A stretch of DNA of 13,572 nt from a virus. The translations under genes were made by a program, and so were the position numbers. Below are positions 1 through 12,072 of this stretch, one piece after another (within the stretch, counting starts at the first letter, position 1; each line of letters starts with the position of its first letter). Where the stretch lies: the UHGV virus genome UHGV-1746862; one strand, 5' to 3'. The notes beneath the pieces are model-generated. The model was not told where the DNA came from. It did no database searches and was given only the letters and a program-made list of their open reading frames with translations.

Positions 1-144
1 CTCTTACTCCCCCTCTCCCCAAAAGTCAAGAGAAAAATTTGTAGCGGATTGAAAAATAATTCTTGATTTGCGTTCTGTTTTGTGGTAGTCGCGCGCACCC
101 GTTTCATTACAATTTTTTTCAAAAAAATATTTTTAAAATTCCTA

Positions 145-223
145 TTGACTCTTTGAGTATGGTTATCTAGTATTTGCATCAGACGGGCAATCAAGCCCAC
201 TTCCTAAACTGGAGAATCTAAAA
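145..223 (+). promoter_or_regulatory. Putative sigma70-like promoter plus conserved translation-initiation region upstream of a micro-ORF
   Basis: TTGACT (145-150), 17-bp spacer, TAGTAT (168-173); A/T tract upstream (113-140); weak stem GGGC/GCCC 185-198; then CCTAAACTGGAGAATCTAAAAATG, the same initiation region as the downstream cassettes. Confidence 0.4.
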
Positions 224-298
224 ATGCTGTACAGTCGCGAATTGATGGTTACAACTAACGTTAACACAAAAGCAAAACGTTTTTACATGCAAATCTGA
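224..298 (+). CDS. Micro-ORF, 24 aa (MLYSRELMVTTNVNTKAKRFYMQI); hypothetical small peptide or decayed gene remnant
   Basis: ATG at 224 placed exactly as in the other cassette-driven genes (GGAG 9 nt upstream); ends TGA 296-298; below the ORF-track length cutoff. Confidence 0.25.
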   Translation: MLYSRELMVTTNVNTKAKRFYMQI

Positions 299-430
299 GG
301 CGTATGGTCCAGAATATCAGAAGCTGACTATTGCAACTATGTAGAAACAGCTATAAACTCTAATTGCTACCTTACAAGAAATACAAGAAAGTACATAAGA
401 CAGACAGCAGTTTATTACTACAATATCTAA

Positions 431-519
431 TAAAGTACTTTACAAGGGGCTTATAGTTCGATAAAGTAAGCCCCAGATAAAGAACTTTACCACTAAATCC
501 TAAATTGGAGAACTTAAAA
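431..519 (+). promoter_or_regulatory. Type A cassette: promoter-like TTTACA-N17-TAAAGT overlapping a GC-clamped stem-loop, plus conserved RBS
   Basis: TTTACA 439-444; TAAAGT 462-467; stem GGGGCTTA 446-453 / TAAGCCCC 467-474; GGAG 507-510; nearly identical to the copy at 2488-2576. Confidence 0.55.
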
Positions 520-813
520 ATGGCTATTATCAAAAACGTTGTAATTACTGCAAAGACTCGTGATGACGCTCGCGTTATGGCTAAAAAGTTATGCGGGAAA
601 GTGGTTGACAATGGAAAACAATCTGCTGTAAGGTGGGGCGTGAAGGTTGATAAACAGTTGAAGTTAAAAAATTCACCGATAAACCTTTTTACATGTGTAA
701 ACACTATCGGGAAGACAAATGTATACACGAAAAAGGCATACATTAGACGCGTAGCATTAACATCCCCCATTCGTACAATGAGAAGTTATGCAAAGCTGAA
801 AATTAACAAATAA
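520..813 (+). CDS. Hypothetical small basic protein (97 aa)
   Basis: ATG at 520 with GGAG at cassette spacing. The ORF track's 505 start is an in-frame TTG inside the RBS and is rejected. Stop TAA 811-813 immediately followed by the next cassette. Confidence 0.7.
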   Translation: MAIIKNVVITAKTRDDARVMAKKLCGKVVDNGKQSAVRWGVKVDKQLKLKNSPINLFTCVNTIGKTNVYTKKAYIRRVALTSPIRTMRSYAKLKINK

Positions 814-900
814 AGTACTTTACAGGGGGCTTAAAAGTTGATATCTTAAGCCCCAGATAAAGAGCTTTACCACTCAATCCTTAAACTAGGAGATTCAAAA
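811..900 (+). promoter_or_regulatory. Type A cassette (variant stem)
   Basis: TTTACA 819-824; TATCTT 842-847; stem GGGGCTTAA 826-834 / TTAAGCCCC 846-854; CTAGGAGATTCAAAA then ATG at 901. Confidence 0.55.
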
Positions 901-1413
901 ATGAAAACTGTAGACGCTACCTTTGAAGTTGTAAAAGAAAAATTCACCATTATTTACGAAGCTGTCAATTGTTATGAAGCAAGCCATAATCTTGATAATT
1001 GGAAGTTTACAGATGACCATCAAGGCGGCGTGACTGTTAAAAATCCTAACTGTCAGCGTAATGAATTTAAATATGCAATCCCTTTACATTACAGCCTTAA
1101 ACAGCTTTCAAGTGACTATGCAAAACAAGGCCGTGAGAATCCATCGAAAGAGGCTTACACGAGCTTACAGAAAGAACTAGAAAGAGATTTAGAGGCTTCA
1201 GAGTATAACCTTGCCGCGAAAGTTGTGGATGCAAACGGTAGCACGGTTTTAGAAAGTTTTTATCTTGGTTATGCTTTCGATTGGTGCTATCGTGACGGCG
1301 ATGATTTAGAGGATAGACTAAAAGAAGAGGTGAACAACGCAGACGCAGAATCTGAAGTATTAGAACGTTTGGAATCGTTGAAAGACTCAGTGATGAATAT
1401 CTTTAAGAACTAA
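901..1413 (+). CDS. Hypothetical acidic protein (170 aa)
   Basis: ORF with cassette RBS; stop TAA 1411-1413 abuts the next cassette; no recognisable motif. Confidence 0.75.
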   Translation: MKTVDATFEVVKEKFTIIYEAVNCYEASHNLDNWKFTDDHQGGVTVKNPNCQRNEFKYAIPLHYSLKQLSSDYAKQGRENPSKEAYTSLQKELERDLEASEYNLAAKVVDANGSTVLESFYLGYAFDWCYRDGDDLEDRLKEEVNNADAESEVLERLESLKDSVMNIFKN

Positions 1414-1505
1414 ATAGATTTCTTTACACGGGGTTATCAGACTGATAAGATAGCCCCAGATAAAGAGCTTTATTCAAATCAACCCTTAAACTAGGAGATT
1501 CTAAA
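1411..1505 (+). promoter_or_regulatory. Type A cassette (divergent stem with compensatory changes)
   Basis: TTTACA 1423-1428; TAAGAT 1446-1451; stem-loop GGGGTTATCAGACTGATAAGATAGCCCC 1430-1456; CTAGGAGATTCTAAA then ATG at 1506. Confidence 0.5.
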
Positions 1506-1802
1506 ATGAAATTATCAAATAAAGTCCGTGAAAATTTAAGCAAGTTACTTAATAAAATTGATTTCATTGAAACATCAAGGAATAGTCATGATGTTATGGA
1601 ATGGTTACACGGAAAAATCAAAGGCCGTCGTGTAGTGATTTGCTTATGGAACAGTTGCAGGGAGTATAAAAAACCTGTATTGCAAGTCAATATTTATGAT
1701 GATACTTTTAAAAGTCCTGTAAAGTCTAAAAGCGATTTATTAGAATCCTATGAGATAACTGTAAATGGCAAAGTATCACGTAAAGAGGAAACACCATGTT
1801 AA
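1506..1802 (+). CDS. Hypothetical protein (98 aa)
   Basis: ORF with cassette RBS; its stop TAA 1800-1802 overlaps the next start (ATGTTAA). Confidence 0.7.
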   Translation: MKLSNKVRENLSKLLNKIDFIETSRNSHDVMEWLHGKIKGRRVVICLWNSCREYKKPVLQVNIYDDTFKSPVKSKSDLLESYEITVNGKVSRKEETPC

Positions 1803-2128
1803 TGACTGGTATCACTGCAATCATTGTCATTTTCGCGCTATATAAGGCATATAAAGCCTATAATCTGGCAAGTAAGGCAATCACACAACAGGTTAATAAT
1901 AACCTTGTAATGAGCTTTCTAGAGCGTTTAAGTGATGAACAATTAAAACGGCTAGAAATGAGCTTTAGATTCAGGGCGAGAACTTATCAAATCAGTGACA
2001 TTTTCAAAGATAATTTTCAATTAGTCGATGATTATAATTCTCTGATAAATGCTTTAAATATTAGTGACTTAAAAGATTATCACGCTGTAATTGTTCAAGA
2101 ATTGAGCAAACGAAAACAAAACTGTTGA
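1796..2128 (+). CDS. Hypothetical small membrane-anchored protein (110 aa), one N-terminal hydrophobic helix
   Basis: Translationally coupled to the upstream gene; GAGGA 7 nt upstream of ATG 1796; residues 3-17 (MTGITAIIVIFALYK) hydrophobic. Confidence 0.65.
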   Translation: MLMTGITAIIVIFALYKAYKAYNLASKAITQQVNNNLVMSFLERLSDEQLKRLEMSFRFRARTYQISDIFKDNFQLVDDYNSLINALNISDLKDYHAVIVQELSKRKQNC

Positions 2129-2217
2129 CACTGATTTTTAGATAGATTAAATTACACATCAACGGGGAGGCAATAACCTCCCTACTAAATAAAGTCCTTA
2201 AACTAGGAGATTCAAAA
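2125..2217 (+). promoter_or_regulatory. Type B cassette: TTGACA-N17-TAAATT promoter, 5'-proximal GGGGAGG/CCTCCC stem-loop, conserved RBS
   Basis: TTGACA 2125-2130 overlaps the upstream stop TGA 2126-2128; TAAATT 2148-2153; stem 2164-2182; CTAGGAGATTCAAAA then ATG at 2218. Confidence 0.6.
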
Positions 2218-2490
2218 ATGTATACTACTAACAACGGTCGTACTTTAAATGTCACTCTACGTCACTATGTTGATGGTGTAATGTGCTTTGATGATTTACA
2301 AGCTGAGCAACACATCTTAGATTGGCAAGTAGCAGGACTCCAAAAAACTGCTACCGGATACGGGAAAAAGATTCCAACTAGCTGGAAAGTACACTATGAA
2401 GGCCGTTTGCGCAGAATTTATCAAGATGTGCAAAGCAATAGCGCATCGAGTTACATTATAGTAAAAGGCAAAAAACTGCATTTAATGTAA
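2218..2490 (+). CDS. Hypothetical protein (90 aa)
   Basis: ORF with cassette RBS; stop TAA 2488-2490 abuts a type A cassette. Confidence 0.7.
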   Translation: MYTTNNGRTLNVTLRHYVDGVMCFDDLQAEQHILDWQVAGLQKTATGYGKKIPTSWKVHYEGRLRRIYQDVQSNSASSYIIVKGKKLHLM

Positions 2491-2576
2491 AGTACTTTAC
2501 AAGGGGCTTATAGTTCGATAAAGTAAGCCCCAGATAAAGAGCTTTACCACTAAATCCTAAATTGGAGAACTTAAAA
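2488..2576 (+). promoter_or_regulatory. Type A cassette, near-identical copy of 431-519
   Basis: TTTACA 2496-2501; stem-loop 2503-2531; same RBS; about 1 mismatch per 100 nt against 431-519, identity extending into the first codons (ATGGCTATTA). Confidence 0.55.
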
Positions 2577-2981
2577 ATGGCTATTAATAACCGTGAATTA
2601 TCAATTTTAAAAGCACGTTTGACCGTTAACCGGATTAATGTTATCACGTCATCAGCACCAGATGAAACACTGCAAAACATTATTGGGAAGATTCAAAGTG
2701 TTATCTTAGACGTTGAAAGCGTAAAAAATTCATTGGCTGACGTTGCAGCAGGTATCACACTAGACGGTGCGCAATATGAAATGTCCGACATGTTAGGCAA
2801 ATCTAAGGTAATGAATAAAGAGTTAGATTTGAAAATGTTCCGATTTGCTGTTAAAGTGTGGCTATCTGTCGAGTATGATGCTAACTTTGCAATCGCTGAC
2901 TTTTTCGCCACTTGGTTGCAGCGTAATTTGACTAATCATGACTTCCGCGATATCTGGGATGCAATTTATGCAGAACTCTAA
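2577..2981 (+). CDS. Hypothetical protein (134 aa)
   Basis: ATG at 2577 with cassette RBS; the track's 2562 start is an in-frame TTG inside the RBS and is rejected. Confidence 0.7.
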   Translation: MAINNRELSILKARLTVNRINVITSSAPDETLQNIIGKIQSVILDVESVKNSLADVAAGITLDGAQYEMSDMLGKSKVMNKELDLKMFRFAVKVWLSVEYDANFAIADFFATWLQRNLTNHDFRDIWDAIYAEL

Positions 2982-2990
2982 AAAATTTTG

Positions 2991-3085
2991 TTGACACTGG
3001 TTTTTAGATAGATTAAATTACACATCAACGGGGAGGGAATGACCTTCCCCACTAAGTAAAGTCCTTAAACTAGGAGATTCAAAAA
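2991..3085 (+). promoter_or_regulatory. Type B cassette
   Basis: TTGACA 2991-2996; TAAATT 3014-3019; stem GGGGAGGG 3030-3037 / CCTTCCCC 3043-3050; CTAGGAGATTCAAAAA then ATG at 3086. Confidence 0.6.
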
Positions 3086-3289
3086 ATGGCTATTATTAAT
3101 GATTTAACCATTGAAACTACACACATCAAAGATATCAAAGTTGGCGATATAGTCCTTTCCCACGGCGTAGAAAAAACTGTCACTGCAAAGGATATCAAAG
3201 AGGATTCTTTCATGGGTAGGACTCTCTTCGGTGATTCTTATTGCTTAGGCTATCTTGCAGTTTTAAAAGTTGTCAAAAATAACAAATAA
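3086..3289 (+). CDS. Hypothetical protein (67 aa)
   Basis: ORF with cassette RBS; starts MAII like the gene at 520. Confidence 0.65.
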   Translation: MAIINDLTIETTHIKDIKVGDIVLSHGVEKTVTAKDIKEDSFMGRTLFGDSYCLGYLAVLKVVKNNK

Positions 3290-3375
3290 AGTACTTTACA
3301 AGGGGCTTAAAAGTTGATAACTTAAGCCCCAGATAAAGAGCTTTACCACTAAATCCTAAACTGGAGATTCTAAAA
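3287..3375 (+). promoter_or_regulatory. Type A cassette (stem variant as in 811-900)
   Basis: TTTACA 3295-3300; stem-loop 3302-3330; CTGGAGATTCTAAAA then ATG at 3376. Confidence 0.55.
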
Positions 3376-3624
3376 ATGATGAACTACTTTAACATTCCCG
3401 ATACCTGTAGATTATTGACACAAGAAGAAAATTTGGGTAAACCTTTCATTTACCACATGCCAGATAACACGGCAAAAACTTATAGTTACAATGTTAACCG
3501 TTTCACCGCATACGCTGCAAAGAACGGCTATAGGTTGGTTACTCAAAAAGTAATGCTGGTTACAACTGCTGGCGAGATTCCTACAGTTGCAGTCAAACTA
3601 GTTTTCTCAAAGAAAGTTAAATAA
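3376..3624 (+). CDS. Hypothetical protein (82 aa)
   Basis: ORF with cassette RBS; stop TAA 3622-3624 abuts the next cassette. Confidence 0.65.
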   Translation: MMNYFNIPDTCRLLTQEENLGKPFIYHMPDNTAKTYSYNVNRFTAYAAKNGYRLVTQKVMLVTTAGEIPTVAVKLVFSKKVK

Positions 3625-3709
3625 AGCACTTTACAAGGGGCTTATAGTTCGATAAAGTAAGCCCCAGATAAAGAGCTTTACCACTAAATCCTAAACTGGA
3701 GATTCAAAA
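3622..3709 (+). promoter_or_regulatory. Type A cassette
   Basis: TTTACA 3630-3635; stem-loop 3637-3665; CTGGAGATTCAAAA then ATG at 3710. Confidence 0.55.
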
Positions 3710-4252
3710 ATGAAATGCTATCACGGAACTACTCAAGAAAATTTCCTCAACCTGATTAATAACGGTGATAAACCATCAGGCGCATGGGATTGTTCGGATA
3801 TGGACGGCAATTTTTACGTGTATCCAGAAAATAAAATCTATGGCGACGATGATGAAGAGATAACATCGGAAGGTATTCAGCAAGCTCTAGGCAATGCCAC
3901 TATCACCGCAGCTTTTCAGATGAAGACTCAAAATATTGTTATCTTAGAACTCGATATTCCAGAGGATGAGCTAAACGATGATTATTCTTGTGATAATATG
4001 TCGAGTGTAGCAAGTTTTACAGAGTACTTTGATGTAAATTGGATTAAAAAGGTCTATACAACAGAGTTTAATGCTATGTATTCACCTTTTTGTCTTCCTT
4101 CATTGGATAACCCAAATTTAAACTATCTTGATGAGTCTCTGGAGCTTCTTGCTAAAAGTGTTCAACAGTCGGACAGTATTCAGGTTTTTTGTGACATCAT
4201 GGATACACTGACAGGAAACATTGCAGAAGAGGATTTAAAGAGCTTTTTCTAA
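3710..4252 (+). CDS. Hypothetical strongly acidic protein (180 aa)
   Basis: ORF with cassette RBS; many Asp/Glu runs (DDDEE, PEDELNDDY); followed by a terminator-like hairpin. Confidence 0.75.
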   Translation: MKCYHGTTQENFLNLINNGDKPSGAWDCSDMDGNFYVYPENKIYGDDDEEITSEGIQQALGNATITAAFQMKTQNIVILELDIPEDELNDDYSCDNMSSVASFTEYFDVNWIKKVYTTEFNAMYSPFCLPSLDNPNLNYLDESLELLAKSVQQSDSIQVFCDIMDTLTGNIAEEDLKSFF

Positions 4253-4284
4253 AAACCTATGCAATCACCTTATAAACACTAATC

Positions 4285-4304
4285 AGCCCCTTGTAGGGGC
4301 TTTT
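4285..4304 (+). terminator. Putative intrinsic terminator (short T-tail)
   Basis: AGCCCC 4285-4290, loop TTGTA, GGGGCT 4296-4301, then TTTT. Confidence 0.45.
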
Positions 4305-4318
4305 AGAGGGCTTAAATC

Positions 4319-4552
4319 ATGCTTACAACCATTTACCTCATCCTTTCCATCTGTAATGGTCATTCATGTGATTTTAAAGGGCTTGAAGAGTTTACAGGAA
4401 GTAAAGAAAATGCTATTCAAGTTTGCCAGATAGCAAGACAAGACTATCCCGCTAGTGATGATATACAATGTTACTTTAAGACAGAAGATGAAGACGGTAT
4501 CTATTTTGACAGCGTAGATGGTCAGTATGAAATTATCATTGAAAAAGACTAG
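4319..4552 (+). CDS. Hypothetical small protein (77 aa) with hydrophobic, Cys-containing N-terminus
   Basis: ATG at 4319 with weak AGAGGG upstream; the only gene of the array without a cassette; N-terminus MLTTIYLILSICNGHSC. Confidence 0.5.
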   Translation: MLTTIYLILSICNGHSCDFKGLEEFTGSKENAIQVCQIARQDYPASDDIQCYFKTEDEDGIYFDSVDGQYEIIIEKD

Positions 4553-4643
4553 ACAAGCCTGATAAAAATCTGTAAATTGTCAATCAACGGGGAGGGAATG
4601 ACCTTCCCCACTAAGTACAATCCTTAAACTAGGAGATTCAAAA
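4550..4643 (+). promoter_or_regulatory. Type B cassette
   Basis: TAGACA 4550-4555 overlaps stop TAG 4550-4552; TAAATT 4573-4578; stem 4589-4609; CTAGGAGATTCAAAA then ATG at 4644. Confidence 0.55.
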
Positions 4644-4985
4644 ATGGCTTATGTAACCGTAATTACCGATAAAGAAAATTCATCTTGGTCAACTCAAGTA
4701 AGTGATAAGATGTCACCTATGCAGTGCCTAAAATACTTTGAACAGTGGAACAAAGGCGAGGACACAAGCCCCTTTCAAGTGATGCAGATTATCCATGTAG
4801 ATAACGAAGGGAATAAAACGGTTTTAAATAGTGAGTACTACGCAAGCCTTTTTGAAACGAGAAGTAAAACAATGAAGCTTTTACGTGAATCCGGTTATGC
4901 CCATATCGCCGCGTTAATCTGGGATGACCTGCTAAAAAACCAACGTATCAGCTATGTAAAACCTGAAAAAATATTCATCAGTTAA
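4644..4985 (+). CDS. Hypothetical protein (113 aa)
   Basis: ORF with cassette RBS. Confidence 0.7.
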   Translation: MAYVTVITDKENSSWSTQVSDKMSPMQCLKYFEQWNKGEDTSPFQVMQIIHVDNEGNKTVLNSEYYASLFETRSKTMKLLRESGYAHIAALIWDDLLKNQRISYVKPEKIFIS

Positions 4986-5018
4986 TCAATAACTTACAAA
5001 AAACTTTTAAAAAAAATG

Positions 5019-5047
5019 TTGACAATACCCCTTGACATTGGTAACTT
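5019..5047 (+). promoter_or_regulatory. Additional promoter-like element with tandem TTGACA hexamers and upstream A-tract
   Basis: A-run 5004-5016; TTGACA 5019-5024 and again 5032-5037; TAACTT 5042-5047 at 17-bp spacing from the first hexamer. Confidence 0.35.
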
Positions 5048-5115
5048 TGTTCGAGGGGGTTTATCTAAAAGGGATTCACTTAAAAGATTCTTTATAGATA
5101 AGCTCAAAAAATTAC

Positions 5116-5208
5116 TTGCAATCAGCTATCAAAACAAGTAAATTACTAATCAACGGGGAGGGAATGACCTTCCCCACTAAGTAAAATCCTTAAACTAGGA
5201 GAGTCAAA
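5116..5208 (+). promoter_or_regulatory. Type B cassette
   Basis: TTGCAA 5116-5121; TAAATT 5139-5144; stem GGGGAGGG 5155-5162 / CCTTCCCC 5168-5175; CTAGGAGAGTCAAA then ATG at 5209. Confidence 0.55.
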
Positions 5209-5739
5209 ATGAACAAGTTTAAAGCTATCAACTTCATTCGTTCAAATGCTGTAATGTCTAAGCCTGTAAAAGATACATATGAATTTCGTTGTAATGGGGT
5301 ACACTTTGCAACCATCACTAAGTCAGAAAACGGGGCTTATTATGTACATCGTCGTAATGTTGCAACCGTTGTAGTCTCTCACTTTATGCAAGCTGTAGCG
5401 GAATTATTACCGTTATTCTTAGAGATTTACTTAGATGAGTGTAAAAACGTTCACAACCACGTTAAAAACCTTTTAAACGGTTATAAAATGGCTTATGAAC
5501 GTTCTATCAAGTCACTAAACAAGTTTTACAATGCACCTGCAAATACTGTTTCAATGGCTTATGATGTAAACGGTGAGTTAGTTAGTCTCTTTAAAGTGGA
5601 AGAAATTAAACTGTATAATCTACGTCCTAGTGGTTACTCTAAGACTCTTGGTGAAGGTTTAACGTTCAATATCAAGAACTTAGAAAAAACTTTAAAAGAT
5701 ATTGAAAAAGATATTGACGAGACACTTAAAAGTCTGTAA
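5209..5739 (+). CDS. Hypothetical protein (176 aa)
   Basis: ORF with cassette RBS; its last codons and stop contain the promoter of the next cassette. Confidence 0.75.
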   Translation: MNKFKAINFIRSNAVMSKPVKDTYEFRCNGVHFATITKSENGAYYVHRRNVATVVVSHFMQAVAELLPLFLEIYLDECKNVHNHVKNLLNGYKMAYERSIKSLNKFYNAPANTVSMAYDVNGELVSLFKVEEIKLYNLRPSGYSKTLGEGLTFNIKNLEKTLKDIEKDIDETLKSL

Positions 5740-5806
5740 ATTGTCAATCAACGGGGAGGCGATAACCTCCCCACTAAATAAAACCCTTAAACTAGGAGAT
5801 TCAAAA
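5714..5806 (+). promoter_or_regulatory. Type B cassette, promoter embedded in the 3' end of the upstream gene
   Basis: TTGACG 5714-5719; TAAATT 5737-5742 overlaps stop TAA 5737-5739; stem GGGGAGG 5753-5759 / CCTCCCC 5766-5772; CTAGGAGATTCAAAA then ATG at 5807. Confidence 0.55.
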
Positions 5807-6055
5807 ATGGCAACTATCCGCGCTACTGTTAACGAGTTCGGTTTTTCCTCTCTGGATGTTAAATTTGACATTGCAGGCACTGATAACGCCTTTGAAATGG
5901 TGAAATGTCTTATCAGTCAGACCATCAAAGATTATAATCCTTCGGATGAGTTCTGGGAGGAAACAAAACAAGAAGTTCTCAAGGATGGTTATACTTATCA
6001 CTATTGGGGAGAAAAAATCGTCTCCCTGTACTACAACAAACAAGATTATAACTAA
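5807..6055 (+). CDS. Hypothetical protein (82 aa)
   Basis: ATG at 5807 with cassette RBS; the track's 5702 start is an in-frame extension running through the cassette and is rejected. Confidence 0.7.
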   Translation: MATIRATVNEFGFSSLDVKFDIAGTDNAFEMVKCLISQTIKDYNPSDEFWEETKQEVLKDGYTYHYWGEKIVSLYYNKQDYN

Positions 6056-6065
6056 TCGACGCAGC

Positions 6066-6117
6066 GGGGCTAAATAGCCCCAGATACCTGAACAGCCCCT
6101 TAAAATGGGGCTTTTTT
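6066..6117 (+). terminator. Two consecutive GC stem-loops, the second a canonical intrinsic terminator closing the rightward array
   Basis: GGGGCT-AAAT-AGCCCC 6066-6081; AGCCCC-TTAAAAT-GGGGCT 6094-6112 followed by TTTTT 6113-6117. Confidence 0.6.
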
Positions 6118-6560
6118 ACGTCTATGTAATAGCCTCTATTCAATCCTTTTCCTTTCCTTTCCAGAATCTATCCCACTGATTCAATAGAATCTTATCAGAC
6201 CTTAAAAGCAATAACTCTATAGTCTACTCTATAACCTCTTATCAAATCAACTTAAATAAAAGCCAATAACCCCAGAAAGGGGATGGCCCATTTAAACGCT
6301 CTATAAAGCTCTATAACAGCCTTATCAACCTAACTTAAGGGATTGCATTACCTCACCCTAAAAAGCCCTTTATAAAGCTTCCCAGAGACTTAAAAGAATC
6401 TTATAAGGGTGTAAGCTTTATCATCTCATTAGTATTCTTGTGAATATCTAAACAACCCCTTGATAGTCACTAAAAAGTATGTTATAGGGGCTTTAAAGTT
6501 ACTTTGAAGTAGCTTAAAAGTTACGTAAAAGAGGCTATAAAGTTACGTAAATGCTAGCCC

Positions 6561-6661
6561 CCTTAACATTCTCTTAACAATTTCTTAACAATCCCTACAT
6601 AGTTATGCTTTTAAGGCACTTGTTAGCAACTTGTTAGTCCCTTGTTAAATCTCTGTTAAGA
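6561..6661. repeat. Head-to-head sub-array: three CTTAACA sites, then four TGTTA(G/A) sites in the opposite orientation, each set at exact 11-bp spacing
   Basis: TAACA cores start at 6564, 6575, 6586; TGTTA cores start at 6621, 6632, 6643, 6654. Confidence 0.7.
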
Positions 6662-6863
6662 CCACGTAAAAGCCTTGTAAGAGTCTTTGACATAGCCTTA
6701 AAAGCTCCTGTAAAGCCCTATAAAGAGCTATCTGTACAGTTGGGGGATAGATACTAGGAAGAGACTTAAAAGAGCTTACAAAGAGCTATAGAGAGCTTTT
6801 AAGAGGGCTATTTAGAGAATCACTAAGAGAGAAAGGGAACGATAAGACCAGAGATAGTGACCA

Positions 6864-7140
6864 TGTTAATAGCTTGTTAAAAAGATTAAACACTTGTTAG
6901 AAACTTGTTAATTATCTTAACAAAATAACTCTTTAAAATTAACTTGTTAGCTCTTGTTAATCATCTGTTAAGACTCTGTAAAGACTATTCAGCACTTGTT
7001 AGAAAACTGTTACAGCCTTGTTAGTTCTGTTAAGAAACTGTTAAGACCTTTGAAGAGTTGTTAAGAAGGTGTTAGAACTGTTAAGAGATTGTTAAGGATA
7101 TTTTAAAATTTTGCAAAGTACTTGTAAGGGAGCTGTTAAG
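6864..7140 (+). repeat. Tandem array of about 17 TGTTA(A)G-family sites, mostly phased at 9-11 bp
   Basis: TGTTA cores start at 6864, 6875, 6895, 6906, 6945, 6955, 6966, 6997, 7008, 7019, 7028, 7039, 7059, 7070, 7079, 7090, 7134; one inverted copy (CTTAACA) at 6916-6922. Confidence 0.7.
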
Positions 7141-7429
7141 GGCTACCAAGCAGATATACATCCTAATCAGATATTTTTGAGTTCCTTCAAAGACCCTAAA
7201 AAATGACTTGACAGTCCTATTTTATAAAAATTTTAAGATTCTGAATAATTACCTATACAGCCTTTTAAAAATACAGGTAATAACAGGCTTATAAGATACC
7301 TTGTTAGTACCGTGTTAGACCTTGTGAGATAAGGCCTGTAAAGATATTCCTGTTAAGTTTATTAAAACAGTCTATATAGAGGCTTAGTAATACCTAGTGA
7401 ACACCTATAGAGAGTATCATAGCTGACAT

Positions 7430-7635
7430 AGAGATTAAGAGGTGTATAGGAGCTTCTAAGAAGGTGTAGAGGGATGGTTAAGGTGATTGTATAGGTTGTT
7501 AAGAAGGCTTGTTAGAGGGCTTGTTAGAAGGGTTATACAGAGGGGCTATTAAGACCACTAGATAGTTACTAAGATACTATATAGTACTATATAACTATAT
7601 AGAGAGTAAGATTAAGAAGGTTGTTAAGAAGGATA
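7430..7635 (+). repeat. Cluster of longer motif variants ((C)TTGTTA(A)GAAGG, AAGGTGTAGAGG)
   Basis: TTGTTAAGAAGG at 7496-7507 and 7621-7632; CTTGTTAGAGGG at 7508-7519; CTTGTTAGAAGGG at 7520-7532; related GGTGTATAGG / AAGGTGTAGAGGG at 7440-7473. Confidence 0.55.
7575..7602. repeat. TATA-rich palindromic cluster
   Basis: Perfect 12-bp palindrome TACTATATAGTA at 7575-7586; three CTATATA(G) copies at 7577, 7587 and 7595. Confidence 0.6.
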
Positions 7636-7690
7636 GATATTTTGTTCACATATGATGGTGACCCAGAGGTTGGGACAACCGATAAAATTT

Positions 7691-7723
7691 TATAAAAGTA
7701 AAAAGCCCCCAATTAAGGAGGCT
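7691..7723 (-). terminator. Putative intrinsic terminator closing the leftward gene cluster
   Basis: On the minus strand, AGCCUCC-UUAAUU-GGGGGCU (7 bp stem with one G-U pair) followed by UUUUACUUUUAUA, just past stop TAA 7735-7737. Confidence 0.55.
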
Positions 7724-7734
7724 CTTAAGATATT

Positions 7735-8358
7735 TTAAATCAGTGTTTCCAGAACTGTTTTTAATGATGACTTGGTTGTCTGATAAAAATGAGTAAATCC
7801 ATTATTGTTATCGAATATCTGCATCATAACAGCATCTCCCTTGATTGGGTACACTCGGATATCATAGTGAAAACCATTAAAGACACAAGAGCCATTACAG
7901 AATGCACTAAAGTCATCCACTGAGATATACTCTTCATGCCCTGTGATTTTTATACAAACACCTTTACTCGGTCTCTTAGGGTTGATATCTTCCATCACAG
8001 ACATACTCTGCCCACCAAGAGATACCATAGTGACCACTTTACGGTTCTTCTGTTTAAAGTACATCTTAACTTTCTGTAAAGTGTCTTCATAGAACGGGTA
8101 AGACCTTTCTACAAAGATTCCTTCAAGTGGCTCTTTACCATTTTCAACTTCTCTGTTATGCCGTACTGCAAAGATAATTTGTTCGAACCAGTCAAGATTT
8201 TCTTCGGAGAGTGCTTCTCGAACATCACTCCAGTCAAGTACTAGGTAGTTACCTTCAACTTCTTTTAAGTTATCTTTTTCCATAGATATCACACCATTAT
8301 CGTAAAACTTGATATTCTGGTACTGCGAATTTATTACTATTGTTCTTGATGAGGTCAT
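7735..8358 (-). CDS. Hypothetical protein (207 aa; possibly starts at the internal ATG 8283, giving 182 aa)
   Basis: Long ORF; the first 62 nt overlap the upstream gene in another frame; no clear SD before ATG 8358. Confidence 0.65.
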   Translation of the reverse strand: MTSSRTIVINSQYQNIKFYDNGVISMEKDNLKEVEGNYLVLDWSDVREALSEENLDWFEQIIFAVRHNREVENGKEPLEGIFVERSYPFYEDTLQKVKMYFKQKNRKVVTMVSLGGQSMSVMEDINPKRPSKGVCIKITGHEEYISVDDFSAFCNGSCVFNGFHYDIRVYPIKGDAVMMQIFDNNNGFTHFYQTTKSSLKTVLETLI

Positions 8359-8761
8359 CCTCTGAAACTAAAAATGTAATACCACATAAGTGTCTGTAAC
8401 GACTATCATACTCGAATATCTTAAACAGATATTTACCATCATGATAAACCTGTTGCACTTCACCTTCTGCAACAATCTCGCCTGTAATAAAATTTTTTAG
8501 TTTATACACATTACCAACCTTAGGTACTGTTTTCATCTCAGGCTCTTTTAGTGCTACACCTATTTTTACATCACCGAGTAAATGAGAACTCTCAAAAGCT
8601 ACGTGTTTCATATAGGCTTCTGAGCATTCCCAAATAAAACAATGTACAAGAACCTTAGCAGCATGTCTTGAGCAGTTCAACTTATCACAAATTTCTGTGT
8701 ACATCTCATCTTTAGTAGAATTGTCAAGCATTGCTCTTTGCACTACTTCTTTAATTTTCAT
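8297..8761 (-). CDS. Hypothetical protein (154 aa)
   Basis: ORF in the leftward cluster, overlapping the upstream gene by 11 nt. Confidence 0.7.
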   Translation of the reverse strand: MKIKEVVQRAMLDNSTKDEMYTEICDKLNCSRHAAKVLVHCFIWECSEAYMKHVAFESSHLLGDVKIGVALKEPEMKTVPKVGNVYKLKNFITGEIVAEGEVQQVYHDGKYLFKIFEYDSRYRHLCGITFLVSEDDLIKNNSNKFAVPEYQVLR

Positions 8762-9527: not shown

Positions 9528-10061
9528 CTATAATTGTAGGTTGCATTCTCTACTTACCTCTTCAAGTTTAACCTCAGAATCCTTAAGTCGTTTCTTATGA
9601 ACTCTGAACCTCATTAGTGAGATGATGATACCAGCTAAAGGAACAGCATACAAGTACCAAACATCATGTGCCTTTGCAGTAATCTGTGTAATGGTCAAGT
9701 CTTGAGCTATGTAGCTGATTGCTGATACGGCTAGTAATGTTGCTAAGAAGAAAACCAGTATCATAACAATATTCAGACAACCTCTGGCATGGTATTCATG
9801 CTTAATGCACTTATTCTTCTCTTCAACAACCCTGTTGTAGTCATTTGTAAAGTCTCTGTAGAAAGCTTTTAAGTATTCTTGAGTGTAGCCTTCAAAGCAA
9901 CCTGTGCCGTACCAATAATCACCACCAAAATGTGCTATGATACCTGTATCCCCATTTGGTTTGGTTACTCTTAGTGAAGTATGATGACCAGTCTTCTGAT
10001 AATCTATCTTGTATCTTTCTTCGTAAATCATTTCCCAACCCCTCTCAATCGTTTGTTCCAC
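9528..10061 (-). CDS. Hypothetical membrane protein (177 aa), soluble N-terminal part then two predicted TM helices and a charged C-terminus
   Basis: Hydrophobic segments IVMILVFFLATLLAVSAISYI and VWYLYAVPLAGIIISLM; alternative coupled start at 10031 (ATGA overlap with the upstream stop). Confidence 0.7.
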   Translation of the reverse strand: MEQTIERGWEMIYEERYKIDYQKTGHHTSLRVTKPNGDTGIIAHFGGDYWYGTGCFEGYTQEYLKAFYRDFTNDYNRVVEEKNKCIKHEYHARGCLNIVMILVFFLATLLAVSAISYIAQDLTITQITAKAHDVWYLYAVPLAGIIISLMRFRVHKKRLKDSEVKLEEVSRECNLQL

Positions 10062-10246: not shown

Positions 10247-10788
10247 TCTTTCACCATAGCGTTTCTGAACTGGCGTTGTGTTTCTCTTGTAATTTCGTTT
10301 GGAGTAAACCCTGCTTTTAGCATATCTCTGAAAAGAACTTCTAAATGGTTCCTCTCAATGATGTAAATAGCATTCTGAATAGCTGTTTTGCGCTCCTTCA
10401 GGTCACTACTAATCTCTTCGCACTTACTGGTAAGTTCTGTATCAACTTTCTTATAGACTGGCATAACATGTGCGTAGCAACCTTTATTAGTCTCCATGAA
10501 AAATTTAAAAGACTCTTCAGAGTCCTTTAGAGCAATCCCTATAAAGTTTTTGTAAGCACCTGTGAAAGATAAGGAATCAATCTCAGCAGTTGAGTATACA
10601 GTTCCTGCACACAGTCTTGCAGAAGTACTGAATGTGTGGTTTGGTGTTGTGTCAAAGTCTAAGTTCTTCAGTGGTCGGAAATAAACTGTACCATTGTGTG
10701 AGATGTGTGTTACAACAGCCTCAACACTCTTTGAAGGATTCTGTTTAACATACAAAATAATTTTATCGTGTTCTTTCACTTTAGCCAT
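10243..10788 (-). CDS. Hypothetical protein (181 aa)
   Basis: ORF with GGAGAG RBS upstream of ATG 10788. Confidence 0.7.
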   Translation of the reverse strand: MAKVKEHDKIILYVKQNPSKSVEAVVTHISHNGTVYFRPLKNLDFDTTPNHTFSTSARLCAGTVYSTAEIDSLSFTGAYKNFIGIALKDSEESFKFFMETNKGCYAHVMPVYKKVDTELTSKCEEISSDLKERKTAIQNAIYIIERNHLEVLFRDMLKAGFTPNEITRETQRQFRNAMVKE

Positions 10789-10802
10789 ATCTACTCTCCA
10801 GA

Positions 10803-10835
10803 AACTAAAAAGGGAACTACCTCTCGATAGCTCCC
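10803..10835 (-). terminator. Putative internal intrinsic terminator in the leftward cluster
   Basis: On the minus strand, GGGAGCU-loop-AGUUCCC (10812-10835) followed by UUUUUAG (10805-10811), which runs directly into the RBS of the gene starting at 10788. Confidence 0.45.
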
Positions 10836-10860
10836 ATCATAATCAATATTGTATACTCGG

Positions 10861-11442
10861 TCAAGAGTATTTTTTAGGCAGCAATGCACTGCGCTTGTTA
10901 CTCTCTTCACTCAATAGTGCAATGAAATCATCACTTTTACCTTTCCACGGGCTGAATGAAGGGATATGTTCGCGGATAGCCTCAATCACTGTTTTAAGTG
11001 CTGTGTTCTTCATCCACCAATCAGAATCTGCTGATGCTACCACGTAGTATCCACCGTCATCAGTTAAAATTGGCTCTGAAATACATGGTGAAATCAAAGT
11101 GGTGATGATTGAACCGTTGTTCATGTAGTATGTGCGCTTCATAACCTTTTCAAGAAGCTTGTGAAGGTCACCAAACAATGTTACAAGTTCTTTATGGTCA
11201 ATATCTTTTTCGAGACTAGCTCGATACTTCAAAAGTGCAGCATCAACTTCTCTGTCATTAAACTTGAAGTACTGGACTTCATCAACAAGGCAGACACTAA
11301 TGTTATTAACATTCATAGTCAGCTTGCAAACTTTTGCAGGAGAGTTGATATTTGGTTGAAAAAGTGCAATACACCCTTCAATATTTCCAAAATGTTGTAC
11401 CAGTGTTACTTGTGGAGTGATATTCTGTTGCTCTTCGGACAT
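10861..11442 (-). CDS. Hypothetical protein (193 aa)
   Basis: ORF; start overlaps the upstream stop (TAATG, shared nt 11442). Confidence 0.7.
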   Translation of the reverse strand: MSEEQQNITPQVTLVQHFGNIEGCIALFQPNINSPAKVCKLTMNVNNISVCLVDEVQYFKFNDREVDAALLKYRASLEKDIDHKELVTLFGDLHKLLEKVMKRTYYMNNGSIITTLISPCISEPILTDDGGYYVVASADSDWWMKNTALKTVIEAIREHIPSFSPWKGKSDDFIALLSEESNKRSALLPKKYS

Positions 11443-11786
11443 TACAGTTTCCTCATTAAATACTTTTTAAGTTGTGTGTTAGGTTTCTCAAAAACTTCTA
11501 TAGAAGATATCTTAACAGATTCACCACGCATACCAGTATGTTTGAATATGTAATACTCTAACATCCCTATGTACTTTGCTGGTAAGTCATGCTTGACATA
11601 CACCGTCACAGAATCTTCAAATTCAACGACCTTCGTACCATCTTTGTAGTTAAACTCTTTAGGATGGTTGTAGTTGTCTATGTCATACATTAAAAAGAGT
11701 CTTTTACGTTGTAAATCAAGCTTATTTGTTAAAGACTCTTTGATATCTGAGAAGTTTTTGTACACTGTGACATGGAGCTTACTCAT
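11442..11786 (-). CDS. Hypothetical protein (114 aa)
   Basis: ORF; 8-nt overlap with the upstream gene. Confidence 0.65.
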   Translation of the reverse strand: MSKLHVTVYKNFSDIKESLTNKLDLQRKRLFLMYDIDNYNHPKEFNYKDGTKVVEFEDSVTVYVKHDLPAKYIGMLEYYIFKHTGMRGESVKISSIEVFEKPNTQLKKYLMRKL

Positions 11787-12072
11787 CGTTAAACTCTCTG
11801 ACGAAGAAATAGTTGACTTTGTTATTACCTACCATAAGGTCAAAGCAGGTATTTTCAAAAGGTTTGTTGCAGGCATCATATGAAGTGTATGTATCAGCTA
11901 CTTGCTTAGTAGTGAGCTTTTTACTTGATGGATTTAAGAGGCCACCATACAGTTTCTTGATAGCCTCTTCTACAACAGACCAGATGATTTCGTCAGTAAT
12001 CTCTTCGTACAGGTCAAGTTCACGCTCTAGTGAGAAGTCACAAATAGGGAAAATAACCTGCACTTTACTCAT
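11779..12072 (-). CDS. Hypothetical protein (97 aa)
   Basis: ORF; TAATG overlap with the upstream gene at 12072. Confidence 0.65.
   Translation of the reverse strand: MSKVQVIFPICDFSLERELDLYEEITDEIIWSVVEEAIKKLYGGLLNPSSKKLTTKQVADTYTSYDACNKPFENTCFDLMVGNNKVNYFFVREFNDE

Follow-up and report, generated by a model that had tools for sequence, protein, structure and literature searches.

A Felix O1-like phage carries repeated putative promoter and stem-loop cassettes resembling those of T4-like phages

The viral DNA analysed here, UHGV virus genome UHGV-1746862, is a stretch of 13 572 nucleotides (nt), hereafter the window, and belongs to a Felixounavirus (a Felix O1-like myovirus); in a BLAST search with these 13.6 kb the best match was phage KhF1, with 93.8% identity. 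From position 1 to around 6055 the plus strand is an array of small open reading frames (ORFs), in which 12 short cassettes lie between positions 145 and 5809: the first promoter of the array, five cassettes of a kind here called type B and six of a kind called type A. Judged by their signature, the type B elements appear to be portable expression cassettes for early genes, of the kind known from T4-like phages as promoter-early stem-loop (PeSL) cassettes, and would add to that kind a further host group and a subclass in which the stem-loop begins at +4. On balance we lean, with somewhat better than even confidence, toward a picture in which these are PeSL-kind cassettes whose hairpin is an RNA boundary element and, in type B specifically, also a closure of the mRNA 5' end. 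The PeSLs have been described in RB49/phi1, PST/T4 and nt-1/KVP40 (Arbiol et al. 2010, PMC2839356; Comeau et al. 2014, PMC4122927), where they lie in plastic regions rich in genes whose function is unknown. By definition such a cassette opens at its 5' edge with a stop codon, has an AT-rich tract and a sigma-70 promoter, carries a polyG/polyC stem-loop that includes G-T pairs, and ends at its 3' edge with a ribosome site and ATG (PMC2839356).

Each of the five type B cassettes consists, in this order, of an A-tract, a -35 box, a 17-nt spacer, the -10 box TAAATT, four variable bases, ATCAAC, a G/C stem-loop and a common A-rich leader; GGAG and ATG close these and all other cassettes (Table 1). 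The core ATCAACGGGGAGG is present in five copies, all on the plus strand (2158, 3024, 4583, 5149 and 5747), compared with 0.01 expected by chance. A promoter scan found four of the five type B promoters, namely TTGACA-17-TAAATT at 2125 and 2991, TAGACA-17-TAAATT at 4550 and TTGACG-17-TAAATT at 5714. The fifth (TTGCAA 5116–5121, 17 nt, TAAATT 5139–5144), which matches at eight of 12 positions, was found by eye, and its TTGCAA variant was found again in 38 of 147 related cassettes. The -35 boxes of cassettes 4 and 5 had not been given in the original list. At 2196–2209, and at the same place in each cassette, part of the ribosome site is paired to an upstream CCU(U) in a weak mini-hairpin (UCCU-UAAACU-AGGA), of which the Erwinia phage phiEa21-4 retains the equivalent CCUU-AUA-AAGG.

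The 147 distinct type B cassettes were gathered from Ounavirinae-type contigs and genomes. A first pattern used on IMG/VR (TAAATT-N4-ATCAAC...ACTAA) was too loose, its single matches being mostly due to chance and only the contigs of around 85–90 kb with multiple matches being relevant; the matches of a second pattern lay exclusively in contigs of 51–94 kb. Comparison of these sequences gives the promoter signature, the hairpin potential, the placement of stop codons and the shuffling of genes, and it is from these that we infer promoter activity, the exact start and all effects of the hairpin. At the fixed position the -10 box is TAnnnT in 146 of the 147 cassettes (TAAATT in 98, TAAAGT in 21, TAGTAT in 12 and TAATAT in 10), and exactly 17 nt upstream of it 144 have TTGACA, TTGCAA, TTGACG, TAGACA, TTGACT or TTGATT. 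The mean match to TTGACA at this offset is 4.88 of six positions, compared with 0.9–2.0 at 13 neighbouring offsets. Furthermore, the signature is kept in around 20 contexts with unrelated spacers, from three Ounavirinae genera, and all of these contexts have an A-tract at around -45 to -40, approximately 5–10 nt 5' of the -35 box. In many contexts the -35 box and spacer are at the same time the last codons of the upstream gene, and the promoter positions are nonetheless kept. Because the -35 box, the 17-nt spacing, the -10 box and the A-tract are all kept even within coding sequence, an early promoter for host sigma-70 is well supported, and the same holds for reading the type B signature as a predicted sigma-70 promoter with an UP-like element.

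Transcription usually starts 7±1 nt after the -10 box, with a purine after a pyrimidine preferred. In the type B cassettes 10 nt separate the -10 box from the stem (TAAATT-ACAC-ATCAAC-GGGG), and the 5' end is therefore likely to be AACGGGG or ACGGGG, with the hairpin at around +3/+4. Transcription thus probably starts in CAAC, and the predicted unpaired 5' tail, as given by the distance from the -10 box to the stem, is AC, AAC or CAAC. The original prediction had placed the start such that the hairpin stands at the extreme 5' end of every type B mRNA, followed by a common leader and ribosome site, and the spacing rule supports this placement as a predicted start.

The same signature suggests that the type B promoters are very probably active early. 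The counterpart of the array in Felix O1, ORF15–23, is the tail of the rightward early transcription unit, and transcripts of four of its genes (ORFs 16, 20, 21 and 22) peaked 5 min after infection in reverse transcription PCR (PMC3185647). The Felix O1 genome paper listed both elements only as direct repeats of 57 and 39 bp, and stated that early transcription was not understood (PMC3185647). Hairpin promoters of the N4 type, which serve a phage-encoded RNA polymerase, were rejected, since no RNA polymerase is encoded by Felix O1 (PMC3185647) and full sigma-70 signatures are present.

It had also been claimed that in type B cassettes a promoter hexamer overlaps the stop codon of the preceding gene. 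The three overlaps (2125–2130, 4550–4555 and 5737–5742) are exact according to the sequence and the ORF list: TGA at 2126–2128 ends ORF 1796–2128, TAG at 4550–4552 ends ORF 4319–4552, and TAA at 5737–5739 ends ORF 5209–5739. The overlap does not extend to the other two of the five copies; in cassette 2 the stop (2979–2981) lies in the A-tract, 10 nt before the -35 box, and the ORF upstream of cassette 4 ends 130 nt away. Likewise, the -10 box that had been called invariant is TAAATT throughout the window but can be TAAAGT, TAGTAT or TAATAT, always of the form TAnnnT, in relatives. Among 86 distinct contexts in related phages, the stop codon forms the first three nt of the -10 box in 35, lies inside the -35 box (as TGA or TAG) in 23 or directly before it in five, and lies in the A-tract in 20; all told, the A-tract, the -35 box or its border, and the -10 box account for 85 of the 86. 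The overlap most likely results from the modular design, in which any ORF is joined on at the cassette's 5' edge and TGA, TAG or TAA is part of the hexamers as such.

RNA folding from the predicted start to the ATG gives every copy a 7–8-bp G/C hairpin followed by an open A-rich leader, and the type B leader segments fold with -16 to -19 kcal/mol (z scores of -2.5 to -3.8). The hairpin occurs in two variants, GGGGAGG-N6-CCTCCC(C/T) at 2164–2183 and 5753–5772, and GGGGAGGG-AATGA-CCTTCCCC at 3030–3050, 4589–4609 and 5155–5175. Hairpin potential is retained in 58 of 59 distinct cores, and at least six stem families were recognized (GGGGAGGG/CCTTCCCC, GGGAGG/CCTCCC, GGGGAGG-GAAA-CTTCCCC, GGGGC/GCCCC, GGGA/TCCC and GGGC/GCCC); in the distant phage phiEa21-4 an unrelated hairpin, GGTTCAG/CTGAACC, occupies the same place after TATACT. 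Seven sequence-distinct hairpins from three genera all begin at +4/+5, with z scores of -3.2 to -5.6 relative to shuffled sequences. The bases before the stem, (A/T)TCAAC or TCAGAC, do not vary among all 18 type B cassettes read, unfiltered, in three arrays. No loop sequence is fixed (AATGA, GATAA, GAAA, AAGCAA and others), a variation that speaks against recognition of a specific loop. G-U pairs make the sense RNA more stable than the antisense RNA; for type B this holds in 44 of 69 cores and for type A in 40 of 57.

An alignment of the hairpin variants with MAFFT/RNAalifold was mis-registered and uninformative, and the Rfam covariance models gave only two sub-threshold chance hits (mir-980) in window positions 1–7700. 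A reading of the GGAGG/CCUCC stem as a pair resembling the Shine-Dalgarno sequence and its complement was dropped, since the stem families GGGGC/GCCCC and GGGC/GCCC do without it. In the Felix O1 RefSeq record, the start of ORF19 at 9983 is an ATG within a type B hairpin loop (GGGAATGACC), which is likely to be an annotation error.

The six type A cassettes of the array have the leader and ribosome site in common with type B, and differ in the place of the hairpin. Their promoter, TTTACA-17-TAnnnT, is found in 115 of 118 distinct copies, the middle varying freely, and their G/C hairpin covers the spacer and the -10 box, with 0–1 nt left between its end and the predicted start of the cassette itself. 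Mooglevirus (phage Maleficent) and Kolesnikvirus (phage phiEa21-4) also have this array, and in each of them the two architectures occur. An alternative in which the TAAAGT at the stop codon is the type A -10 box, so that the hairpin would be 5'-terminal here too, was rejected, since -35 boxes are not enriched at 16–18 nt and AAAAGT, TAGATT or TAAAGC often takes the place of that hexamer. The type A hairpins thus lie upstream of their own start. Strong hairpins are therefore kept in this phage both within and outside the transcripts that they accompany, seemingly for a purpose to which a 5' end is not essential.

Five of the type A cassettes (431–522, 811–903, 2488–2579, 3287–3378 and 3622–3712) have an interrupted helix of around 20 bp (-24 kcal/mol, z score of -4), which was also seen at 10776–10864 and 11714–11800 of the sequence L155. 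Type A of phiEa21-4 has A-U in place of the outer U-A pair and GGUG/CACC in place of the GGGG/CCCC stem, each a compensated change. Such a helix would suit a processing site of the RNase III type overlapping the promoter. For type B an RNase III site was rejected, because the stem has 7–8 bp and an (interrupted) helix of around 20 bp is needed.

We propose that, as soon as the cell is infected, host RNA polymerase with sigma-70 would initiate in CAAC and so place the first base of the hairpin at +3/+4, and that initiation at each cassette would therefore give each small gene its own mRNA. In read-through RNA the same hairpin would stand 20–50 nt 3' of the stop codon of the upstream gene, and would thus be an RNA-level boundary element between adjoining transcription units. 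Toward the upstream unit it may hinder read-through and block 3' exonucleases, by analogy with the measurements on PeSL stem-loops; in type B only, it would in addition close the 5' end of its own mRNA, to an extent of stabilisation that would depend on the number of unpaired nt. The 5' edge of the cassette would serve as a joint for any ORF, and the repeated cassettes as crossover points for the swap, loss and gain of genes of unknown function.

Several points weigh against this proposal. No U-run follows the cassette hairpins, ACTAARTAAAG following on the plus strand and GTTGAT on the minus strand, and a terminator scan called none of them on either strand, while it did call the real terminator at 6094. 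Since the real terminators of the phage have a U-run and the cassette hairpins do not, efficient intrinsic termination at the cassettes is unlikely. Nor does the boundary role explain why a hairpin stands at +4 after the first promoter of the array and after that of phiEa21-4 gp29, each of which is already preceded by a canonical terminator, so that nothing there needs to be attenuated. In a covariance-model alignment of 130 matches, 54 of them distinct, 93.8% of the cells pair, but we found no two-sided compensatory changes among the 54 distinct sequences, a result no better than that for shuffled sequences; with the partner slid by one column as a control, 96% still pair, because a G-run merely faces a C/U-run. 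The support for the structure therefore rests on the replacement of the stem by different stems and on the strand asymmetry. As to homology with the RB49 PeSLs, a distant-mode blastn search gave matches to Ounavirinae-type records only, and nhmmer with cassette profiles found nothing in 24 kb of RB49; membership in the PeSL kind is not excluded by this, because the published definition is architectural. Finally, the searchable literature gave no measurement of start, half-life or read-through for any phage of the Ounavirinae, and nothing usable on start sites or RNA-seq of the Felix O1 group.

The hairpin might instead act on upstream transcripts alone, as an attenuator or insulator that limits cumulative read-through in an array dense with promoters, its +4 place in type B being an accident of assembly. 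In RB49, a PeSL stem-loop placed before lacZ cut expression as much as the rrnB T1 terminator, and a PeSL stem-loop can have any of five places with respect to the promoter (PMC2839356); the type A hairpins, upstream of their own start, and the G/C-rich stem base common to both types would fit such a role. We nevertheless regard an attenuator alone as unlikely: the cassette hairpins are without a U-run in a phage that has canonical terminators elsewhere, +4 hairpins stand also behind promoters that follow a real terminator, and the start at +4/+5 is constant over unrelated stems.

These last two observations, together with the bases kept before the stem in all 18 cassettes, speak instead for a pure 5' stabiliser or handle, in which the hairpin would cap the type B 5' end, block RppH and 5'-end-dependent RNase E, and maybe serve for co-regulation. 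Secondary structure at the 5' end is an accepted stabiliser of mRNA, as RppH and RNase E need single-stranded 5' ends (PMC3997798). However, two unpaired nt suffice for RppH and RNase E, although three are preferred (PMC8833179), so that the predicted tail of two or three nt (AC or AAC), borderline for protection, still satisfies both enzymes, and RNase E bypasses simple, orthogonal stem-loops (PMC9943677). Type A and type C cassettes, moreover, keep equally strong hairpins outside their own transcripts, type A being the more numerous; loop sequences are not conserved and covariation is absent; and in the architecturally equivalent PeSLs of RB49/phi1 the stem-loop was measured as a terminator or attenuator (PMC2839356). 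All in all, the stabiliser reading has partial support, and a pure stabiliser or handle seems rather unlikely; a role at the 5' end and one as boundary or attenuator are compatible with each other. A more specific version, in which (A/T)TCAAC and a GGG-based 5' stem would mark type B mRNAs so that a factor of the phage or the host could time when they are protected or shut off, is in our judgement decidedly improbable; were it true, type A and type B would be two post-transcriptional regulatory classes, and not two assemblies of one module.

The GenBank record of KhF1 annotates the homologous hairpins as rho-independent terminators of the minus strand, against the direction of the genes. As a reading of the cassettes this is hardly credible, since the array contains no minus-strand genes, on the minus strand the hairpin contains an A-C mismatch and has GTTGAT after it in place of a T-run, and the terminator scan calls none on either strand. 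The four features concerned, at 3060–3080, 3925–3945, 5483–5503 and 6642–6662 of KhF1, coincide with type B hairpins and are likely to be an annotation error.

Shuffling of genes at the cassettes also speaks for the proposed picture. In Felix O1 the cassettes are limited to one array at 8.4–12.0 kb, and when the window was compared with relatives by BLAST, the matching pieces broke at cassette positions 429, 799, 811, 1422, 2148, 2989, 3014 and 3619. Across 31 arrays the same gene family stands behind type A or type B, varying with the neighbours. One contig (L071) has G and H in exchanged places although its cassettes still follow the order b, a, a, and in a chimeric cassette the crossover lies within the common leader and not in the hairpin. 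Apart from these, the IMG/VR contig 2974556886 (L125) has gene family B twice in tandem, with a type A cassette and a nine-codon remnant between the copies, an arrangement that looks like a cassette-mediated duplication.

Crossovers within cassettes could also mean that the hairpin has no RNA function, and is a hot spot for recombination or replication slippage, or the passenger of a selfish repeat. Recombination between PeSLs leads to gene shuffling and mini-circles, one RB49 crossover lying in the stem-loop's loop (PMC2839356; PMC4122927), and the lack of covariation fits as well. We consider a role at the DNA level, or none, very improbable all the same: where the dominant stem (GGGGAGGG/CCTTCCCC) has G-T pairs the opposite strand has A-C mismatches, so that the sense RNA is the more stable, the crossover observed here lies in the leader, and hairpin potential survives full replacement of the sequence.

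Table 1. Positions of the cassettes and of the terminator in the gene array (predicted elements; positions are those of the window)
Feature	Position	Strand	Parts
First array promoter, type B layout, other hairpin	145–226	+	TTGACT 145–150, 17-nt spacer, TAGTAT 168–173, TTGCATCAGAC
First array promoter, downstream parts	185–226	+	GGGC-AATCAA-GCCC 185–198, leader, ribosome site, ATG 224
Type A	431–522	+	TAAAGTAC, TTTACA 439–444, 17-nt spacer, TAAAGT 462–467, hairpin GGGGCTTA...TAAGCCCC over spacer and -10, ATG 520
Type A	811–903	+	stop TAA 811–813, TTTACA 819–824, 17-nt spacer, TATCTT 842–847, ATG 901
Type A	1411–1508	+	stop TAA 1411–1413, TTTACA 1423–1428, 17-nt spacer, TAAGAT 1446–1451, hairpin GGGGTTATC...GATAGCCCC, ATG 1506
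Type B cassette 1	2125–2220	+	-35 TTGACA 2125–2130 (stop TGA 2126–2128 within), -10 TAAATT 2148–2153, ATCAAC 2158–2163
Type B cassette 1, downstream parts	2164–2220	+	hairpin 2164–2183, ribosome site AGGAG 2205–2209, ATG 2218
Type A	2488–2579	+	stop TAA 2488–2490, TTTACA 2496–2501, 17-nt spacer, TAAAGT 2519–2524, ATG 2577
Type B cassette 2	2979–3088	+	stop TAA 2979–2981 starts A-tract, -35 TTGACA 2991–2996, -10 TAAATT 3014–3019
Type B cassette 2, downstream parts	3024–3088	+	ATCAAC 3024–3029, hairpin 3030–3050, ATG 3086
Type A	3287–3378	+	stop TAA 3287–3289, TTTACA, 17-nt spacer, TAACTT, ATG 3376
Type A	3622–3712	+	stop TAA 3622–3624, TTTACA 3630–3635, 17-nt spacer, TAAAGT 3653–3658, ATG 3710
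Type B cassette 3	4550–4646	+	-35 TAGACA 4550–4555 (stop TAG 4550–4552 within), -10 TAAATT 4573–4578
Type B cassette 3, downstream parts	4583–4646	+	ATCAAC 4583–4588, hairpin 4589–4609, ATG 4644
Type B cassette 4	5105–5211	+	A-tract, -35 TTGCAA 5116–5121, -10 TAAATT 5139–5144
Type B cassette 4, downstream parts	5149–5211	+	ATCAAC 5149–5154, hairpin 5155–5175, ATG 5209
Type B cassette 5	5714–5809	+	-35 TTGACG 5714–5719 and spacer within coding end of ORF 5209–5739
Type B cassette 5, downstream parts	5737–5809	+	-10 TAAATT 5737–5742 (stop TAA 5737–5739 within), ATCAAC 5747–5752, hairpin 5753–5772, ATG 5807
Canonical intrinsic terminator, array end	6094–6118	+	AGCCCC...GGGGCT hairpin, then TTTTTT (terminator scan); compare Felix O1 terminator t23 (PMC3185647)

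The first array promoter was recognized by promoter scan and from the sequence, its hairpin has a z score of -3.2, and a homologous element is present in Felix O1 and in Maleficent. This first cassette drives only a 24-codon ORF (224–298). Window positions 1–522 are 86% identical to positions 8203–8719 of Felix O1, which hold the 68-codon ORF15, and because of this identity the 24-codon ORF looks like a disrupted homologue of ORF15. All ten array proteins that were tested fell into PHROG families of unknown function. One gene junction in the array, 4253–4321, is without a cassette; it has the short hairpin AGCCCCTTGTAGGGGCT, then TTTAG, and the ORF that follows (4319–4552) has a poor ribosome site. 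Upstream of type B cassette 4 lies a structured intergenic piece of 130 nt (4986–5115) with two hairpins (-30.5 kcal/mol, z score of -4.6) and tandem TTGACA boxes, which is conserved in Felix O1 and Maleficent and could be a small RNA or a regulatory leader. At the other end of the array, immediately 5' of its real terminator, GGGGCTAAATAGCCCCAGATAC at 6066–6086 is a remnant resembling a type A hairpin. Beyond this terminator a 1.6-kb stretch without genes (6120–7700) separates convergent transcription units. The motif YTGTTAR has 37 copies in the window, compared with 16.5 expected; 27 of them are within 6574–7627, mostly on the plus strand and with a phasing of 10–11 nt, and this stretch might be an origin, a packaging site or an array of protein-binding sites.

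We found no paper that describes promoter and stem-loop cassettes in the Felix O1 phage group. The present analysis thus extends linker cassettes of the PeSL type from T4-like phages to this group (Felixounavirus, Mooglevirus and Kolesnikvirus), and supports the view of these cassettes as a device in general use for the expression and shuffling of accessory early genes. It also offers a first concrete map of predicted early promoters for Felix O1-like phages, which are used in the biocontrol and typing of Salmonella and Escherichia coli. Although hardly surprising to a phage specialist, the map is useful for annotation, and hairpins within the promoter and hairpins at +4, side by side in one array, form a natural test of stem-loop function.

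Among known systems, the early region of T7 has intercistronic hairpins processed by RNase III, and one promoter cluster feeds the whole region. The Felix O1-like array is likewise a series of early genes separated by conserved hairpins that would come to lie at mRNA 3' ends, and the type A helix is an interrupted one of around 20 bp; in contrast, each gene here has a predicted promoter of its own, and for RNase III the stem of type B has too few base pairs. The 5' stabilisers of the E. coli ompA and papA mRNAs (reviewed in PMC3997798) are closer to type B, in that a sequence-independent hairpin a few nt from the (here predicted) 5' end is followed by an unstructured leader and the ribosome site. 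According to Emory, Bouvet and Belasco in 1992, a stem-loop reportedly protects if it is no more than 2–4 nt from the 5' end. The type B tail of two or three unpaired nt would be at the edge of what RppH and RNase E accept, and unlike the ompA and papA mRNAs, the Felix O1-like phage keeps similar hairpins outside the transcript as well, in type A.

The closest resemblance is to the PeSLs. In both systems the cassettes are repeated intergenic modules, here of around 100 bp, within a plastic part of the genome where small genes without known function are gathered; both have the upstream stop codon at the 5' edge, an A/T tract, a promoter that here has a sigma-70-like signature with a 17-nt spacer, a polyG/polyC stem-loop with G-U pairs in a variable place (over the spacer and -10 box in type A and at +4 in type B), and the ribosome site and ATG at the 3' edge. 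In both, genes are gained, lost and swapped with breakpoints in the cassettes, and chimeric cassettes occur. The RB49 cassettes, read over 24 kb, even have the same short blocks, TAAAAAGTTGTTGACA, GGGGAGGATAACTCCCC, CATCGAAAC and GGAGAATCAAAATG. The two systems differ in that promoter strength and the terminator or attenuator activity of the stem-loop were measured for RB49/phi1 (PMC2839356), as were mini-circles, whereas the present cassettes are known from their sequence. They differ further in the phages that carry them, Ounavirinae here and not Straboviridae, and in the type B stem-loop, which starts 10 nt after the -10 box and would thus lie within the transcript, at +3/+4.

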